Source of the DNA: a virus
Reading direction: 5' to 3' (one strand)
Virus record (IMG/VR): IMGVR_UViG_3300015263_000962
Span: 1 to 64,000 of that record
DNA: 64,000 nucleotides
The notes under the pieces were generated by a model. The model searched no databases. It saw only the letters and a program-made list of their open reading frames with translations, and had not been told where the DNA came from. A program made the translations under genes and the position numbers. This document shows, in pieces, positions 4,622-41,497 of this stretch (positions within the stretch are counted from its first letter, which is position 1; every line of letters starts with the position of its first letter).

Positions 4622-6835
4622 TTGGGGAGAGACCTTGTGGCCGTCAAAACAACGTCAACAGACAAGGAGTGTCGTCGTTATTTTCGACGCCTTCAAAAAG
4701 TGTTCGACAGGGAGTGTGAAAAGCGAGGGGTTGAGTTCAAGATTGACCTGTCCGCTTATCTGGAGATGAGTCGTTATCCAGAGCGACTCAAGACTTACCT
4801 CTTCGAAGGTGACGGCTGGATTTACGACGAAACAATCATCGCTTCCATCGAGATGTCCGAACGAGTCCTGCGTGGCAAAAATGTCGGCTTGATCGGCCTC
4901 GTTCAAACCGCAAAAACCGCCGTTCAGGTGGTTGGCGGAATTGTCTCTGCCCTCGCCTACTATCTCAGAGACGGGCGACCAACGTGGCCTCTTTATCTCA
5001 CTGTGGTCGGGCAAGCCTATGTTGGTCAGTTCTCGTCGAAACTCAGAGAGATGCTGGGGTGTTTCGACAAGGCCGTCATCTGTCATCGCAGTGGAAGCAA
5101 ATGCGAAATCGGTGAGTATTTGGAGTTCCTCGTCGATTTCCGAGAAGATGCCGTCAATGCTCACATCCGCAGCCTGCGAAAAGAAATCTCCAGTGCCTCT
5201 TTCCGAAAACTGAAAAGGGCATATCGTGAGGAGTTGTCTGCGGACAAGACTTGTCCAGTCCTGCCAATCAGCCGAAAGTATGTCGAGTTCTTTCGTGCCA
5301 TCTTCAATGGTGTCCGTGATATCGAAGGTCGGTTGTTGCTGATTCGAGATGAATGTCACGCCGCTTCATCCAAGAACTCCGTCAACGACAAAATCTTCGG
5401 CGACAAAATGGTCGTCAAGAAAAACAAAGATGACATGTCTGAGGCCGAGTTCTACGATCTGCTGAACGCAGATGACGAGCCGTTTCAGATTGTCATGACT
5501 TCTGCCACCAATTGGGCAGCACTCCACTTGGATATCGTGACCATTCCGGTTGGCCCCGATTATTGCGGACTTGATTTCGCAATGTTGGGGTTGGATGAAA
5601 ATGGGGATGACATCTGGACCACAATTGCCACAGGAGCCAACTCCAAAGGGACTCGACTGCCCAAAATCGACTCTTTTGAGTCCATCGGGAAGTTGGTCGG
5701 ATATCCGACATTTCGTTGGTTGCGACCAAGTTGGTATGACGATGCTGGATCTTTTGCAAAGGCACGGGATCGAATCTCTGACTTGTATGAAAACTTCGAC
5801 TCATGGGATGATTACCGGGAGGAAATGCAACAGGGTCTCGCTGCGGTGCTCAATTACTGCTACACCGAAAACCCGCAGAATGGGAATGGTGTGCTGGTTC
5901 GCTTCAAGAGCGACAACATCTGCACCGACGCCTTGATCAAGGATATTCGTCCTTATCTCCATGAGGATCTTCGAAGAAAAATCGTCAAGGGATACGACTG
6001 TGAATACGACACCGTGTCCGAGTTGCTTCAAGACAATCACATCGACCATGAAAAAGATTTTTACATTGTGTTCGTGACGGCCAAAGGTCGCATGTCGGAC
6101 ACCTATCCGGTCTCTTGCACTTATGGCCTCGACTGTTGTTTTTCGACCGACACGCTCACAGCTTTGCTGCAAGGCGTTTTGGGGAGAATGAGCGGATACC
6201 ACAAAAACCCGATGGTCATTCTGTCCGAAGCCAACGTGAAGATGGTCACAGATTTCATCGAAGGCCGTTACAAACCACACGGAAAGTTGTCGAAAGACGC
6301 AAAAAAGAATTCCCGTCGAGCCTATCGCTTTGATCGTCGCTCCACCAATCATATCAAATTCATGTCCGATCTGTTTAGCGATCTCCAGAACTGGGTTGAA
6401 ACACTTCAATCCAGAGATCAGCCAGTCAGAAAAGACGGCAAGATCGTCGGTCATGTGAAGACCATCGAGGCAGGCCCAGACTCCACTGGCTTCTGGGAAG
6501 CATTGATGCCGTACTTTGAGAGGATGAATAGTGACCTCCCCAAGATTGTCTCTGGGGCCACGTCCAAGGATCGCTTGTTGGGGCCGCAGGAGTGTGCGCC
6601 GAGAGGAATTCAATATCGCCTCAATGCAAATGGATGGCCCGTCGCCACGGTGAGAACGGAAGGCAAAGGTCTGAGTACCAAATTCGGTGGTCGTGGTGGC
6701 GAGAAAGAGTACATGGTTGTGCTCAGAATCACAGAGCGATACAGACAGCCCTTCATCCTTGGCTTCGACTTGCTCAAAGTCACTGATGGGGATGGAATCC
6801 AAACCAACGAAAGCGTATCGAGCAAAATCCGATGA
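4622..6835 (+). CDS. SF2 helicase-like / Z1-related ATPase (start may be GTG at 4637)
   Basis: GLIGLVQTAKT (variant of GxVQSGKT Walker A), IRDECH (DExH), TSAT (motif III), LLQGVLGRMSGY (motif VI-like). Confidence 0.7.
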   Translation: MGRDLVAVKTTSTDKECRRYFRRLQKVFDRECEKRGVEFKIDLSAYLEMSRYPERLKTYLFEGDGWIYDETIIASIEMSERVLRGKNVGLIGLVQTAKTAVQVVGGIVSALAYYLRDGRPTWPLYLTVVGQAYVGQFSSKLREMLGCFDKAVICHRSGSKCEIGEYLEFLVDFREDAVNAHIRSLRKEISSASFRKLKRAYREELSADKTCPVLPISRKYVEFFRAIFNGVRDIEGRLLLIRDECHAASSKNSVNDKIFGDKMVVKKNKDDMSEAEFYDLLNADDEPFQIVMTSATNWAALHLDIVTIPVGPDYCGLDFAMLGLDENGDDIWTTIATGANSKGTRLPKIDSFESIGKLVGYPTFRWLRPSWYDDAGSFAKARDRISDLYENFDSWDDYREEMQQGLAAVLNYCYTENPQNGNGVLVRFKSDNICTDALIKDIRPYLHEDLRRKIVKGYDCEYDTVSELLQDNHIDHEKDFYIVFVTAKGRMSDTYPVSCTYGLDCCFSTDTLTALLQGVLGRMSGYHKNPMVILSEANVKMVTDFIEGRYKPHGKLSKDAKKNSRRAYRFDRRSTNHIKFMSDLFSDLQNWVETLQSRDQPVRKDGKIVGHVKTIEAGPDSTGFWEALMPYFERMNSDLPKIVSGATSKDRLLGPQECAPRGIQYRLNANGWPVATVRTEGKGLSTKFGGRGGEKEYMVVLRITERYRQPFILGFDLLKVTDGDGIQTNESVSSKIR

Positions 6836-10024: not shown

Positions 10025-10624
10025 TTAGTCGTTGTTGATGATCTTCGATTGACTCTTGACCCAAGCCTGAAACGCTTTCATTGTGTTTTCATCAAGAGGA
10101 GGCATTGTCTCCTCGGCTACAGGTTCTTCTGCCACTGGTTCCTCGACAACGGGTTCTGCCACTGGTTCTTCAACCACTGGCTCTTCGATGACGGGTTCCT
10201 CGACCGCTGGTTCCTCGACAACGGGTTCTGCCACTGGTTCTTCAACCACTGGCTCTTCGATGACGGGTTCTTCCACCACAGGCTCGACGACAGGTTCTTC
10301 TTCGACGACGGGCTCTTCCACCACGGGTTCTTCAACCACTGGTTCCTCGACGATTGGTTCCTCGACAACAGGCTCAACCACTGGTTCTTCAACCACTGGC
10401 TCCTCGATGACGGGTTCCTCAACGACAGGCTCTTCCACCACGGGTTCTTCAACCACAACTGGTTCCACGACGACAGGTTCTTCGATAACCGGTTCTTCGA
10501 TCACAGGTTCTTCTGTGATAACGGGTTCTTCAACCACCGGCTCGTCAACGACGACGGGTTCGGGTTTGTGCGGCTTTGGCTTATGGTGAGGCACAGGCCG
10601 CTTGCGTCCACGAAATCTTCCCAT
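10025..10624 (-). CDS. EEPVV-repeat protein with basic N-terminus
   Basis: GGAG SD; [10 protein letters not shown] then about 30 EEPV[VIA] pentapeptides and a short C-terminal helix. Confidence 0.8.
10110..10555 (-). repeat. 15-bp coding tandem repeat (EEPVV)
   Basis: Degenerate GAAGA[AG]CCNGTNGT[TC] units. Confidence 0.9.
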
Positions 10625-10634
10625 GTCAAACTCC

Positions 10635-11420
10635 TTACCCTACGACGGGTGGTTCTTCATCGGCGACGGGTTCTTCAACCACAGGCTCTTCGGCCACGGG
10701 TTCCTCGACGACCGGTTCTTCGATAACTGGTTCCTCGACGACGACAGGATCTTCCACCACAGGCTCTTCAACCACTGGTTCCTCGGCGACGGGTTCTTCA
10801 ATGACCGGTTCTTCGATGACAGGTTCTTCAACCACAGGCTCTTCGATAACCGGCTCTTCAACCACAGGCTCTTCGGCCACGGGTTCTTCAATGACCGGCT
10901 CTTCGATGACGGGTTCTTCAACCACAGGCTCTTCGACGACCGGTTCTTCAACAACGACAGGCTCCTCGTACAGCACAACGTCAGCGATGACAGGTGCAGC
11001 AGGAGCGGCTGGCGGAACGATGTCGATTACGACGAAGTGAAGATGATCACCCTCGACCGAACGGTTGCCAGCGTCGTCAATATCAATCATGAAAATGTCA
11101 ACGTCCGAGTTCTCTTCGAGAACCAACTCATAATGAGTCATAGTGACATCCATGATTTCGTACATGCTTTCCACGCCATTGATCATGACGTGTAGTTCAC
11201 GAGACACAACGTCATCGGCACCCAGTGCGGGCAAGCCGATCTTGTAAGTGTACTTGTCCATCAAACCTCCAGAAATGTTTAAGATGGTTGGCTTCTGTGG
11301 CTTTAGCGGCCCCCCGTCGTTACGAACGACTGGAGGTACATCCTTGTAGGCATACCAGATCAAAATCGTCTGGATGGCTATGTGGAGAAGACATGCTGCG
11401 ACCAAAACTAAAACCGACAT
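10635..11420 (-). CDS. membrane-anchored protein: TM helix, Ig/Fn3-like domain and EEPVV repeats (alternative start 11261)
   Basis: Hydrophobic N-terminus; DIDDAGNRS...PPAAPAAP; about 20 EEPVV units; ATAAATA 5 nt before ATG 11420; GGAGG before ATG 11261. Confidence 0.75.
10645..10966 (-). repeat. 15-bp coding tandem repeat (EEPVV)
   Basis: Same unit as in the neighbouring gene. Confidence 0.9.
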
Positions 11421-20535: not shown

Positions 20536-21114
20536 ATGGGTAAATTCAGGTCATTCTTAGAAGCTCACAGCCCCGCTCGGGTCATGATTCCGCTCCCAAA
20601 AGTGGAGCAAGTATCGGACTATGATTGCGGTCCAGCGGCTCTTCGAGCGATCTGTCTGTATTACCAAGTTGGCCCGCAGGATCATCAACAATTCATTAAG
20701 GATTGCCGGGCCACCAAGAAGGATGGGACCGAACCAGAAAATCTCATTCGAGTGGCAAAACAATACGGCCTAAAAACTAAAGAATCACGAAATATGTCTG
20801 TCGATGAATTGCAGGGTTACTTAAATCAAAAGAAGCCTGTGATTGTCGATATTCAGGCATGGGGAGAGGGCTACGACGATCTGGAAAGTGGACACTATGT
20901 CGTAGCAATTGGGTATGATGAAAAGAACATCTATTTCGAAGACCCATCATTACATTCCCACAAGAGAGGGAGCCTTTCTAAGAGAGAACTGTTGAGTCGC
21001 TGGAAAGACAAGAAGGCCAACGGTGAAGAACTACACCAGTACGGCATCGTTATGTGGACAGATAAGATGGACAAAGAAACATCCAGTTTGTCTGCCTCTA
21101 AGCGAATCCCATAA
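20536..21114 (+). CDS. C39-family cysteine peptidase with capsid-targeting-like N-terminus
   Basis: QVSDYDCGPAAL, GHYVVAIGYD and FEDP motifs; MGKFRSFLEA leader. Confidence 0.88.
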   Translation: MGKFRSFLEAHSPARVMIPLPKVEQVSDYDCGPAALRAICLYYQVGPQDHQQFIKDCRATKKDGTEPENLIRVAKQYGLKTKESRNMSVDELQGYLNQKKPVIVDIQAWGEGYDDLESGHYVVAIGYDEKNIYFEDPSLHSHKRGSLSKRELLSRWKDKKANGEELHQYGIVMWTDKMDKETSSLSASKRIP

Positions 21115-21431: not shown

Positions 21432-21464
21432 AAAAAAGGCCGGTCGTTGCAGCGACCGGCCTTC
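21432..21464 (-). terminator. intrinsic terminator
   Basis: AAGGCCGGTCG/CGACCGGCCTT stem followed by a T-run on the minus strand. Confidence 0.8.
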
Positions 21465-21487: not shown

Positions 21488-21868
21488 TCAATCAAGCAAA
21501 TGATCGAACGGTTTCTTGTATCGCATACAATGGAAGATCATCGCCATCCGACGCTTCTCTTCATTGGTGATTTCCATATTCTTGTGCCAAGAGCGGCTCC
21601 AAGATGTTGTCACTCCCCGTTTGGTTTCGGTTTCGATTGGTCTGAAGTGATTTGACAACTCTTGACAAATACACATGACCATTTCGGCTTCAGCAGAAAG
21701 ACCGTGACAATCTCTCAGATCTTGCATGGCACAAGAACTGATCGTTGTCTTGTATGGACCTTTGCTGATTTCGATGTCCCGAGGGACGAAGGTATCGCAT
21801 TCGTATGCGACCGGGTTGATCTTCTTGATCTCTAACTTCCAGCTTTGTTGTAGCCAGTGGTTTCTCAT
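21488..21868 (-). CDS. MRNHWL-tagged protein carrying a major-capsid-protein fragment
   Basis: AAAGGAG SD; AMQDLRDCHGLSAEAEMVMCICQEL versus MCP AQQDLRSQHNLDAEAELTAVLAQEI. Confidence 0.75.
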   Translation of the reverse strand: MRNHWLQQSWKLEIKKINPVAYECDTFVPRDIEISKGPYKTTISSCAMQDLRDCHGLSAEAEMVMCICQELSNHFRPIETETKRGVTTSWSRSWHKNMEITNEEKRRMAMIFHCMRYKKPFDHLLD

Positions 21869-21878
21869 AATTCTCCTT

Positions 21879-22466
21879 TCACAGAAGATCAGGGTCGATC
21901 TCCGTGTTGTCTTGAATGTCCAGTGGAGCCAACTTTTCTCGTAGTTTAAGAAGAGGCGTATAGTCCTCGCCCCACAAGTCGGCTCGTGCGGCATCATGCC
22001 AGAAGTTCCATGTGTTCTCGCTCACCATGCTCTTATAAGGCTGGAGTGCTTCGAACATCGCTGCGGCATACTGTTCCAGACCTGTCAATCGAAGGCTCTT
22101 CAACATCCGTGTGACTCGAAGCATCGTATGATTGAATCTTCGAAGCCACCATGGGGTGTCTGTGGCAGATACGATCAAGACGCTGTTGGGTTCATCTTCA
22201 ACCAACTTGAATTCAAGAAAGCTCAGAAAGCGTACAAACGCCTGCTTGACCTTCTCTTGAAGTTCCGGGTCGCTCTGAAACACCTGACAGTCCTCTCTGG
22301 TCATCACAGGAGCATCGCCGTTCATCATGCTCGGCTCATTGGACGGAAAGATCCACTGGATGTAATCGTGGTCCATTTCCAGTTGTCCGTTGTTCCATGT
22401 GAGAATATCGTCAAGTCGGTGGCCGTTGCAGTTGCCCCGTTCACCTCTGTAAAAATCAACAATCAT
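21879..22466 (-). CDS. opioid growth factor receptor (OGFr) conserved-domain protein
   Basis: LEMDHDYIQWIFP..EPS..N..AP and NH..LRVTRMLKSLRL.GL motifs. Confidence 0.88.
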   Translation of the reverse strand: MIVDFYRGERGNCNGHRLDDILTWNNGQLEMDHDYIQWIFPSNEPSMMNGDAPVMTREDCQVFQSDPELQEKVKQAFVRFLSFLEFKLVEDEPNSVLIVSATDTPWWLRRFNHTMLRVTRMLKSLRLTGLEQYAAAMFEALQPYKSMVSENTWNFWHDAARADLWGEDYTPLLKLREKLAPLDIQDNTEIDPDLL

Positions 22467-26052: not shown

Positions 26053-26559
26053 TCAGTACACGGTGCTGGCGATCAGTCCTTTGCCGTCTGCACACCATTC
26101 TTCCGCAGTCTTCGTGACCACACTGTTGTCCTCCTGACGTACAGGAAGCACTGTGTCTGATGATAACTGACGCACATCAAACTCGTCAATCTCTTCTTGG
26201 CTCCACTCCGTGATCTCGCCTGTCTTGGGACTACGGAGGGGCTCCAGATGTTGATTCAGAGCGTCCTCACGAGATTCAGCGGCATACCAGTGTTGCTCAC
26301 CATCATCAACTTCATAGACGGCCAGCTTGCGATTCAACCAGTAGTTTTTCATGGTCGGTTCTTCTTTCTTTGTTCTCATATCCCAGAATGGATATTGTTT
26401 GACCCAAATTTCAATCAATCGTTCTTCTACAACAATTGGTTGTTCGGCCCGAGGGCCATCCTTCTCTGCGAACACACATCGAAGGCCATCGTCGTAAACA
26501 GCCATCCCTCGTTTGCACTTCTCGCAAACGAAGTGTTTACGCTCCTCGTCCGTCATCAT
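26053..26559 (-). CDS. hypothetical protein with internal MKNYWL segment (possible second start at 26352)
   Basis: In-frame ORF; MKNYWLNRK at codon 70. Confidence 0.55.
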   Translation of the reverse strand: MMTDEERKHFVCEKCKRGMAVYDDGLRCVFAEKDGPRAEQPIVVEERLIEIWVKQYPFWDMRTKKEEPTMKNYWLNRKLAVYEVDDGEQHWYAAESREDALNQHLEPLRSPKTGEITEWSQEEIDEFDVRQLSSDTVLPVRQEDNSVVTKTAEEWCADGKGLIASTVY

Positions 26560-28256: not shown

Positions 28257-29711
28257 TTAGATGATGAAGTTGGCGATGCTCATGCGTGCGTAGAACTTCG
28301 CACCTTCACGGAGCAGCTTCTTGCCGTAGCGGGTCAGAATACCCTTGCGTGGGCAGAAGGATTCAGGATCAAGCACCACAGGTGTCTGTGTCAGCGGGAC
28401 GTATGGGCAGTAGAAGTAGCCCGAGTCCATGTAGCTGTCGCCCTTGTAACCCAAAAGGATCTGGCCTTGTGGGAACAGCGGGTCTTTGTACAGACGCCAT
28501 CTGTTGTTGATCGTACCGACGTACTGGATACCCAGCGACGAGGTGAACGTCTCAGATGGTGCTGGTGCGAAACCTGCGGTTGCCGTTTCGAAGACGGACG
28601 CAACTTCAGGCGAAGTGACGAGCCAGTTACATCCGCCACGGAGGGTCTTACGATGCACGACGTTCGAAACTTCGACGACCTTGACATACAGCGACTCGTA
28701 CTTTTCCTTGATGGTGTCACCGAGGGCTGTGTTGAAGTCCCACACAGCGATAGTACCGGCGTTGTTGCGGAGGTCTGTAAGAACCTCACGGTCGATTTCG
28801 AGGTTGATTTCCTGAGCCAAAACGGCTGTCAGTTCTGCCTCAGCGTCAAGGTTGTGCTGGGATCGGAGATCCTGCTGAGCTTCGTAGCTCCAGACAGCCT
28901 TCAGCTTGCGGGTCTTGGCGGCGATTTCTTCGCTTTCGACCACGAGGTTCACTTCAGGAAGATCCTGATTGCACTCCATGTTGTACTCGTAGCTCATGAC
29001 GAGGTGGTTCGGGCCGGGAGCAACGTCCCATCCGATGGTGACTTCGCCAGTCACGAGGTCCAACGTACCGCTCGTCGGGTTCGATGTCGGAGCACCGATA
29101 GCCGAGAAGCTGAAGGTTCCGTTCTCTGCAACAACATAGGTTGCGACGGCGACCGAACCATCATAGACAGTACCGGTCATGGTGCCTGCGAGAACAGGAG
29201 TGTGCTCCAGCGGAGCGAAAATGGATGTCAGGTCATCGCCAGCGTCAGTGCTGGAAGTTTCGTTCTGCACGAATTGATGCGTGTAGAAGATTTCCAAGTT
29301 GCCATCACCGGATGCCAACTGCTGGAGCGATGTCACGTCGTCCGTTGGGAAGCCGCTTGGTGTCAGGTCGGCACCTCGCATTCCGCCCTTATTGGACGAG
29401 TAGCGGAAACGCAGGTAGTACACCAGACCAGTCGGGCCGAGCAATGGCTGGACCGAGACGATCTTGTTGGCGATCAACTGCGGGTAGATTCTGCGAACCA
29501 GCGGAATGCTGATTCTCTTGAACTGGGCGATGTCCCCAGTATCCGTCATCGCCTCATTCATAAGGCGTTGGTTTTCAAGAAGCACGGCGGCAGCGGCACG
29601 CTCTGTTCGGTTTGTGATGCCATCAAGCATCGACTTGCCGTTTCTCAGCGGACGTGACCAGCGGGCTTCAATCTGACGGGCTTCGTTAAGATATCTTGCG
29701 TTAAAAGACAT
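28257..29711 (-). CDS. gp23: major capsid protein, T4 gp23-like
   Basis: LVRRIYPQLIA..VQPLLGPTGLVYYLR, KTRKLKAVW..QQDLR..H..DAEAEL..EINLEIDRE, GYFYCPYVPL and TRYG. Confidence 0.97.
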   Translation of the reverse strand: MSFNARYLNEARQIEARWSRPLRNGKSMLDGITNRTERAAAAVLLENQRLMNEAMTDTGDIAQFKRISIPLVRRIYPQLIANKIVSVQPLLGPTGLVYYLRFRYSSNKGGMRGADLTPSGFPTDDVTSLQQLASGDGNLEIFYTHQFVQNETSSTDAGDDLTSIFAPLEHTPVLAGTMTGTVYDGSVAVATYVVAENGTFSFSAIGAPTSNPTSGTLDLVTGEVTIGWDVAPGPNHLVMSYEYNMECNQDLPEVNLVVESEEIAAKTRKLKAVWSYEAQQDLRSQHNLDAEAELTAVLAQEINLEIDREVLTDLRNNAGTIAVWDFNTALGDTIKEKYESLYVKVVEVSNVVHRKTLRGGCNWLVTSPEVASVFETATAGFAPAPSETFTSSLGIQYVGTINNRWRLYKDPLFPQGQILLGYKGDSYMDSGYFYCPYVPLTQTPVVLDPESFCPRKGILTRYGKKLLREGAKFYARMSIANFII

Positions 29712-41122: not shown

Positions 41123-41497
41123 TTAATTGTTTTCGGCGTAGTTGTATTCGTAGGAGATAACGAATCCGTCTTGAAGTTCTTCTGGGATCGCAATCGTGCC
41201 CATTTCATAACAAATGAAACCAAATCTCTCATCTGTCTCCTTCCATTGCAGTCGCCCATCTCCATCATCTGTGAACAACTTGTTGTTGCAAATACCGAAG
41301 ATTGAGTTGTTCAACAAGCTGTGAAATTTCAGATTCGCCGTCACACTCATCAACTGTGCGACCCTTTCCCACTTCTGAGGCTTCTCGTCTTGGACGAACT
41401 GCCATTCATAGCAAAGATCCAAAGTGCATCCTTGAGCCAATTCTACGAGATTGAGCGTGTCTTTTACGTCACGTCTCTTCAACCAATGATTTTTCAT
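41123..41497 (-). CDS. MKNHWL-tagged stand-alone paralog of the MCP central (putative insertion) domain
   Basis: LDLCYEWQFVQDE and FVISYEYNY versus MCP LEIFYTHQFVQNE and LVMSYEYNM. Confidence 0.75.
   Translation of the reverse strand: MKNHWLKRRDVKDTLNLVELAQGCTLDLCYEWQFVQDEKPQKWERVAQLMSVTANLKFHSLLNNSIFGICNNKLFTDDGDGRLQWKETDERFGFICYEMGTIAIPEELQDGFVISYEYNYAENN

Follow-up and report, generated by a model that had tools for sequence, protein, structure and literature searches.

A small leader-bearing protein of a huge T4-like phage contains a segment resembling the gp23-type major capsid protein

The P0001 gene, its surroundings and its relatives

The DNA analyzed here (the window) is a stretch of 64,000 nucleotides that opens a contig of 76,382 bp from an uncultured huge T4-like phage. 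The closest record is the 595-kb uncultured phage LR756511.1 (77% identity in the major capsid protein, MCP), and the clade is abundant, with more than 100 MCP clusters at 78% identity or higher and contigs of up to 673 kb. On the minus strand of the window lies the gene for P0001, with the following features:

21488..21868, minus strand: P0001 coding sequence, 126 amino acids, beginning MRNHWL; member of a new family of small proteins in huge T4-like phages
21873..21877, minus strand: Shine-Dalgarno sequence AGGAG, 4 bases before the ATG, read directly from the sequence
21842..21868, minus strand: leader, residues 1-9 (MRNHWLQQS), of the class M-[KR]-N-[HY]-W-[LI]
21752..21766, minus strand: SKGPY turn, residues 35-39, the most conserved motif of the family (G37 invariant, P38 in at least 90%)
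21653..21751, minus strand: MCP-like segment, residues 40-72, in the order strand, short helix QDLRD, turn CHGLS and helix AEAEM...QEL
21435..21464, minus strand: intrinsic terminator-like hairpin of 12 pairs (8 of them G-C) followed by a T run, 24 bases past the stop codon

The strong Shine-Dalgarno sequence and the terminator that the first-pass annotation had attributed to this gene are both in place. An alternative in-frame ATG upstream of the P0001 start gives a longer open reading frame that overlaps the preceding gene; the start at position 21868 is taken to be the correct one, because all short-form family members begin at the equivalent MRN. P0001 is the final gene of a short minus-strand unit, after a small membrane protein and an OGFr_N-like protein. 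The latter, unusual in a phage, is the product of the gene directly upstream (21879-22466, minus strand; PF04664, E = 2e-18). The MCP gene is found at a distance of 6.4 kb (about 7 kb had been claimed), in the same orientation as the P0001 gene. The T4 late-promoter motif TATAAATA has zero occurrences within the window; late expression of P0001 is possible, to judge from its location among the head genes and its sharing their orientation.

Two other observations concern the window. A plus-strand gene at 20536-21114 encodes a C39-like cysteine peptidase (PF13529/PF03412) that starts with MGKFRSFLEA, a different leader class that resembles the T4 capsid-targeting sequence. At about 10080-11040 the coding is strongly repetitive, with repeats of the NHWFF- and DDGF-kind in the plus frames and long open reading frames that overlap on both strands.

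An exhaustive HMMER search of 1.84 billion representatives returned 20 clusters at E ≤ 0.001, all metagenomic and with 25-48% identity. These are P0001 and 19 others; one of those 19, P0011, a 268-aa repeat protein among the representative matches, was left out as a low-complexity artefact. In all, about 21 distinct relatives of P0001 are known, from metagenomes only and with 25-51% identity, including two contig-borne orthologues recovered with their DNA. One of these, L013 (contig SDBT01000580.1), is 46-51% identical and is flanked by TerL and by a T4-type portal gene that bears an intein; the other is L014. The genes that flank the family member differ in all three known contexts, and the nearest relative of P0001 reaches an identity of only 47-51%, versus the more than 100 MCP clusters at 78% or higher.

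When the family was aligned, four conserved elements were apparent: the leader (MRNxWLxRxWKL), the SKGPY turn, a central (Q)DL[RK]D..[GN][LI][DS]A..E[ML] motif and, at the C-terminus, a helix that closes with PY.HLLD. The SKGPY motif has no counterpart in the MCP; in the AF2 model it is the turn that joins strands 32-36 and 39-43 into a hairpin. The existence of a conserved family, in which the core of the central motif is kept throughout, agrees with the earlier view that the gene is not random debris.

Beyond the HMMER search, relatives of P0001 were scarce. A tblastn search with P0001 against 50,697 phage records gave zero matches, and a word-based search of 5.8 billion clusters returned P0001 itself and nothing else. 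Scans of viral contigs with two family alignments gave zero confirmed relatives, and a scan of species-representative genomes with one family alignment gave none. The family is absent from the complete genome of LR756511.1 when searched with the family HMM. PHROGs and NCBIfam assign no family to any member, and no Pfam family fits P0001; a Pfam Sir1 match in 1 of 19 members (E = 0.0012, 19.7 bits against a cut-off of 24) was rejected as spurious.

The contigs of the two orthologues bear further genes that deserve mention. Directly downstream of the orthologue in L013, positions 10382-10948 encode an Acb1-like 2H phosphoesterase (PF23474, E = 1.7e-10), which hints at an anti-defence neighbourhood in that phage. 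In the region 12856-17331 of L013, the T4-type portal gene contains the intein-like insert (PF14890, E = 6.9e-7, with 29.6 bits where the cut-off is 35.8). On the short contig of L014 (2083-8311), a PrkA, DUF444 and SpoVR gene set is found beside the orthologue.

A segment shared with the major capsid protein

The capsid gene of this phage and the part of it that P0001 resembles are as follows:

28257-29711, minus strand: MCP gene, 484 amino acids, gp23-type (Pfam PF07068 Gp23, E = 1.8e-84)
28803..28901, minus strand: MCP segment matched by P0001, MCP residues 271-303, located by BLASTP and a six-frame search

By pairwise BLASTP, P0001 residues 40-72 align with MCP residues 271-303 without gaps and with 15 identities in 33 positions (E = 6e-6), thereby reproducing the match that had been noticed from the letters. 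The ungapped score of 66 was compared with those of 5000 shuffles (mean 28, standard deviation 3.8, maximum 50), none of which attained it (Gumbel p = 1.8e-6). In a six-frame search of the entire 76-kb contig, the best non-self match of P0001 was the MCP (E = 3.8e-4). The same MCP segment gave the best BLASTP alignment to the window's MCP in 18 of the 23 aligned members, P0001 included.

The Pfam Gp23 model picked out the same residues of P0001, at profile positions 151-183 only, and scored 12.7 bits (E = 0.082), below the cut-off of 24.4; at E < 1 it matched 2 of 19 family members. A comparison with gp23 profiles had been proposed at first pass. With hhalign, the family aligned with MCP residues 271-302 over 32 columns (probability 87%, E = 3.8e-6), and when the family profile was run against all PDB sequences the top four matches were gp23 capsid proteins (T4 5vf3_A, E = 0.016, gp23 residues 268-328), the gp23 proteins being its sole significant matches there. 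Over the entire 595-kb genome of LR756511.1, the family HMM gave a single match, the MCP gene of that phage (E = 4.6e-5). A specific tie between the QDLRD..GLDA..EM motif and gp23 capsid proteins is supported by these family profile methods, and on this sequence evidence the relationship between the family and the MCP is very probably genuine, be it by descent or by mimicry.

The extent of the likeness is limited. Judged from its sequence, P0001 is not a capsid protein, nor is it a truncated MCP, because 32 residues align, the lengths are 126 and 484 amino acids and the Pfam score is below the threshold. To describe the gene as a capsid fragment is to claim too much: only about 32 of the 126 residues are alike, and fold searches return no MCP. 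A second echo of the capsid protein proposed by the first-pass annotation, IETETKRGVTTSWS against IAAKTRKLKAVWS, was rejected as noise (E = 22); its order differs from that in the MCP and it falls in a poorly conserved, low-confidence hairpin. The motif itself had been described as QDLR..H..DAEAEL, and its loss among homologues had been set beforehand as a finding that would speak against the proposal. The motif is not lost, since D50, L51 and E62 are kept family-wide in at least 90% of the members, but the His and the second Ala-Glu are not conserved.

The structural position of the segment was taken from T4. The motif of P0001 corresponds to T4 gp23 residues 268-299 in the PDB alignment, and the T4 numbering was verified against the spine-helix residues G292, V306 and V307 in the profile-PDB alignment (PMC9546572). 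P0001 therefore copies three elements: the short helix, the turn and, of the spine helix, the first half. In T4, the short P-domain helix is negatively charged; it is located close to the quasi-threefold axes and contacts adjacent capsomers through charge interactions. The head-length mutations A268V, A275T, D285V and D287V/N cluster in this segment, beside that helix (PMC9546572). The MCP's own AF2 model (shallow alignment, pLDDT 43) was set aside, and the mapping was done by means of the T4 cryo-EM paper. Across 13 MCPs of the clade, the 271-303 segment shows zero variation.

The AF2 model of P0001 is confident (pLDDT 83.5, pTM 0.74) and presents a compact alpha/beta domain, in which strand 39-43, helix 46-50 and helix 59-71 match the gp23 elements in the same order. 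Searches with this model by Foldseek (PDB and BFVD) and by exhaustive VIA-align found no MCP and no clear relative; the top fold-search match, IpgB2 (Z 6.6, rmsd 3.9 over 89 residues), is at noise level, and nothing exceeded noise in the ESM Atlas search. The predicted complex of P0001 and MCP scored 0.00, a value that carries no inference about binding.

The N-terminal leader and other tagged genes

Besides P0001 (start at 21868), two genes of the contig begin with M-[KR]-N-[HY]-W-L, with starts at 41497 and 26352:

41123..41497, minus strand: P0002, leader MKNHWLKRR; body like MCP residues 125-248 (insertion domain), 25% identity, pairwise E = 0.002
26053..26352, minus strand: P0003, leader MKNYWLNRK; body not capsid-like, resembling residues 164-213 of the open reading frame at 4622-6835

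That P0001 and the gene at 41123-41497 share an N-terminal tag had been noticed before, and the tag is real, with the gene that starts at 26352 as a third copy. Of the two tagged genes that had been said to carry neighbouring pieces of the capsid protein, P0001 matches MCP 271-303 and P0002 matches MCP 125-248. The three leader copies use different codons, and it is therefore the peptide, not the DNA, that is conserved or selected. The likeness of P0003 to the 737-aa open reading frame at 4622-6835 (plus strand; residues 164-213, 33% identity, pairwise E = 1e-5) suggests that the leader may also stand on pieces of non-capsid proteins.

In four related contigs, at least 13 genes begin with M-[KR]-N-[HYF]-W-[LI], and the tagged bodies across related contigs include MCP 120-249, 135-207 and 332-419. 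LR756511.1 has three exact matches to the leader pattern, versus zero for a control pattern. One of its leaders starts a 227-aa protein with MCP 135-207, another leader gene lies directly after TerL, the position of P0002 in the window, and five dispersed open reading frames of this genome carry MCP pieces. In L013, a leader-tagged run follows the portal gene, with bodies that match MCP 120-249 (the P0002 type) and MCP 332-419. Four to five consecutive leader-tagged small genes lie past that portal gene, one of which has TKNHWLKKRK inside a longer open reading frame. When a degenerate leader pattern was run over the species-representative genomes, a single match, a random one in a Clostridia MAG, was obtained. 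The leader is followed by basic residues and has no conserved (L/I)-x-E protease site; the P0001 family has just one Glu nearby, E13 (in KLE), which is wrongly spaced and is not kept among the members.

In five relatives (P0010, P0012, P0016, P0017 and P0020), a Tat-like signal peptide, with RRxF[LF] and a hydrophobic core, replaces the leader. The Pfam TAT_signal model gave weak matches in two family members only (best E = 0.17). P0001 itself has R-N at its N-terminus, without a hydrophobic stretch, and so falls outside the Tat type, which is defined by RR, then a hydrophobic core and an A-x-A cleavage site. The leader behaves as a swappable N-terminal module, because the Tat-like signal substitutes for it and the domain begins at an equivalent position in all. 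The Tat-type relatives have conserved Cys/His patterns (DCHGLCAT and RGxHDC), which suggest metal binding; this Cys/His set is missing from P0001 and from most phage-type members.

Past the window, on the same contig, two translationally coupled genes (70173-70628 and 70628-70969, TGATG overlap) have products that both end in NWK[TE]EGF. The first product is like MCP 22-110 (48% identity), passes the Pfam Gp23 model (45 bits) and covers the MCP region equivalent to the T4 Gol peptide, and the second is like MCP 253-282.

These data suggest that (i) P0001 probably consists of a separable 9-residue leader and a predicted alpha/beta domain of about 115 residues; (ii) it would be an accessory protein that evolves fast and occurs in only part of the huge T4-like phage clade; and (iii) the leader, as we read it, may be an address or handle common to many small proteins of the clade, several of them MCP pieces. 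The first two points are part of the explanation that we favour below.

Possible roles and comparison with known systems

The reading that we favour, to which we give somewhat less than an even chance, is molecular mimicry, in which a capsid element on a small scaffold competes with the MCP for a partner. The 32-residue element in the P0001 domain would derive from, or copy, the MCP, the unrelated scaffold of P0001 would display it, and P0001 would then compete with the genuine MCP for a partner that recognizes the element. Such a partner would more probably come from the host or from a rival phage (for example, a defence protein that senses capsids, or the assembling shell of a competitor) than be the phage's own lattice, because the family diverges fast, is patchy among relatives and has varying neighbours, while the copied MCP segment is invariant. 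A decoy role would be consistent with mimicry. Few triggers of bacterial immunity against phages are as common as capsid proteins, which are sensed by CapRel, Avs7/Dsr1, Lit and Thoeris (PMC13581612, PMC13728456).

Several points argue against mimicry. The similarity spans just 32 residues and is below the Pfam threshold. The shared residues (D, L, R, G/N, L, D, A, E, L) are like those used in helix capping and packing and could be kept for local structure. The Tat-like export signals and the conserved Cys/His residues of five relatives point to a function of the domain that may be unlinked to cytoplasmic capsids or sensors. Free MCP peptides, moreover, can set off defences rather than block them, as the T4 Gol peptide does by activating Lit.

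Somewhat unlikely, in our judgement, is the main rival reading, an accessory role in head assembly, in which the MCP-like element would dock P0001 on the phage's own shell as it assembles, or on its scaffold, in the region of the quasi-threefold contacts. P0001 could then tune the capsomer angles or the size of a very large capsid, or tether cargo, with the leader as a head-targeting address. Leader-tagged genes do lie directly after TerL or portal and are oriented like head genes, the copied segment is the region of head-length mutations and intercapsomer contacts in T4, and the leader is common to unrelated bodies, as in the T4 internal proteins. A lattice binder is nevertheless poorly matched by a family that is missing from the close complete genome LR756511.1 and that changes quickly when the MCP element stays constant. 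The leader lacks the conserved (L/I)-x-E site, E13 being itself not conserved, and the Tat-type relatives argue against a role within the head.

It is unlikely that P0001 is an exapted relic, namely an old partial copy of the MCP inside a new small domain with a function unrelated to capsids, such as metal or ligand binding, in which the motif would survive only as a stable helix-turn-helix corner. Such an origin would fit the remainder of P0001, which has no MCP likeness and a predicted fold for which the searches gave no match, the structural look of the conserved shared residues, the retention of DCHGLCAT and RGxHDC in the Tat-type members and the many partial MCP copies that the clade generates. 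Against it, the presence of one leader on a number of different MCP pieces points to a shared purpose related to capsids, not to separate exaptations, and P0001 and most phage-type members are without the Cys/His set.

Very unlikely is a convergent or chance resemblance in a family unrelated to capsid proteins: the match is short, was initially picked by eye among many genes and is modest by the Pfam score and the PDB profile E-value, but the shuffles, the contig-wide search and hhalign all speak against coincidence, 18 of 23 members match the same MCP segment independently, the significant PDB matches are to gp23 only, and other genes with the same leader bear much longer MCP pieces.

Mimicry may also be considered on the scale of the clade. 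The tag type alternates along the MCP, with C-tagged pieces at 22-110, N-tagged at 125-248, C-tagged at 253-282 and N-tagged at 271-303, and this alternation leaves room for the idea that the tags pair pieces together. We regard it as improbable, on what the sequences offer, that there is a clade-wide display system in which tagged pieces of the phage's core proteins are used jointly as mimics. The pieces would come from the MCP (its N-arm, insertion domain, spine-helix region and A-domain piece) and possibly from the 737-aa open reading frame, each tagged with either the MKNHWL leader at its N-terminus or the NWKxEGF tail at its C-terminus. Such mimics would keep host pattern-recognition immunity from sensing these core folds, or would spoil assembly in rival phages.

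Our literature search found no description of capsid-piece genes or of MCP-fragment decoys, which is not proof of their absence. Capsid proteins are the most constrained phage proteins, and the placing of single capsid elements on small tagged proteins would, if true, be a new use by a virus of its own most conserved sequence, with possible roles as a decoy, as a weapon against rivals or as a help in assembling very large capsids. The P0001 family may offer a handle on the setting of giant-capsid size or on surface sensing, because the copied piece is the region of the T4 head-length mutations. The shared leader could let a class of co-targeted huge-phage proteins be predicted from sequence.

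With T4 gp23 (PF07068; PDB 5VF3, 7VS5), P0001 shares (Q)DLR..HG.DA.AEL followed by an amphipathic helix, and the same strand-helix-turn-helix order, which on the P0001 side is predicted. In contrast, P0001 has 126 residues versus about 480-520, and the A domain, the P-domain sheet, the insertion domain and the N-arm are absent.

The T4 capsid-targeting sequence (MKTYQEFIAE) heads the internal proteins IPI-III and Alt (PMC3012670). Like it, the P0001-type leader is a short conserved N-terminal sequence on otherwise unrelated small proteins of one phage, and is kept as peptide, not as DNA. It differs in being M-[KR]-N-[HY]-W-[LI] plus basic residues, without a conserved (L/I)-x-E, and in being known from genes alone.

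Gol corresponds to T4 gp23 residues 93-122 and acts with the Lit protease and EF-Tu. It illustrates how a small conserved part of a gp23-type MCP can, on its own, be the specific ligand of a host factor. Gol is, however, another segment (93-122 versus the 268-299 of P0001), and it triggers defence rather than blocking it.

The T4 vertex protein gp24 and the satellite-encoded Ccm, CpmB and Sid are MCP paralogues or capsid-redirecting proteins. As P0001 may prove to be, they are products of phage or satellite genes that derive from, or act on, the capsid protein to alter shell assembly. They are full HK97-fold paralogues or dedicated scaffolds, whereas P0001 has one short MCP element, in an unrelated small domain that bears a shared leader.
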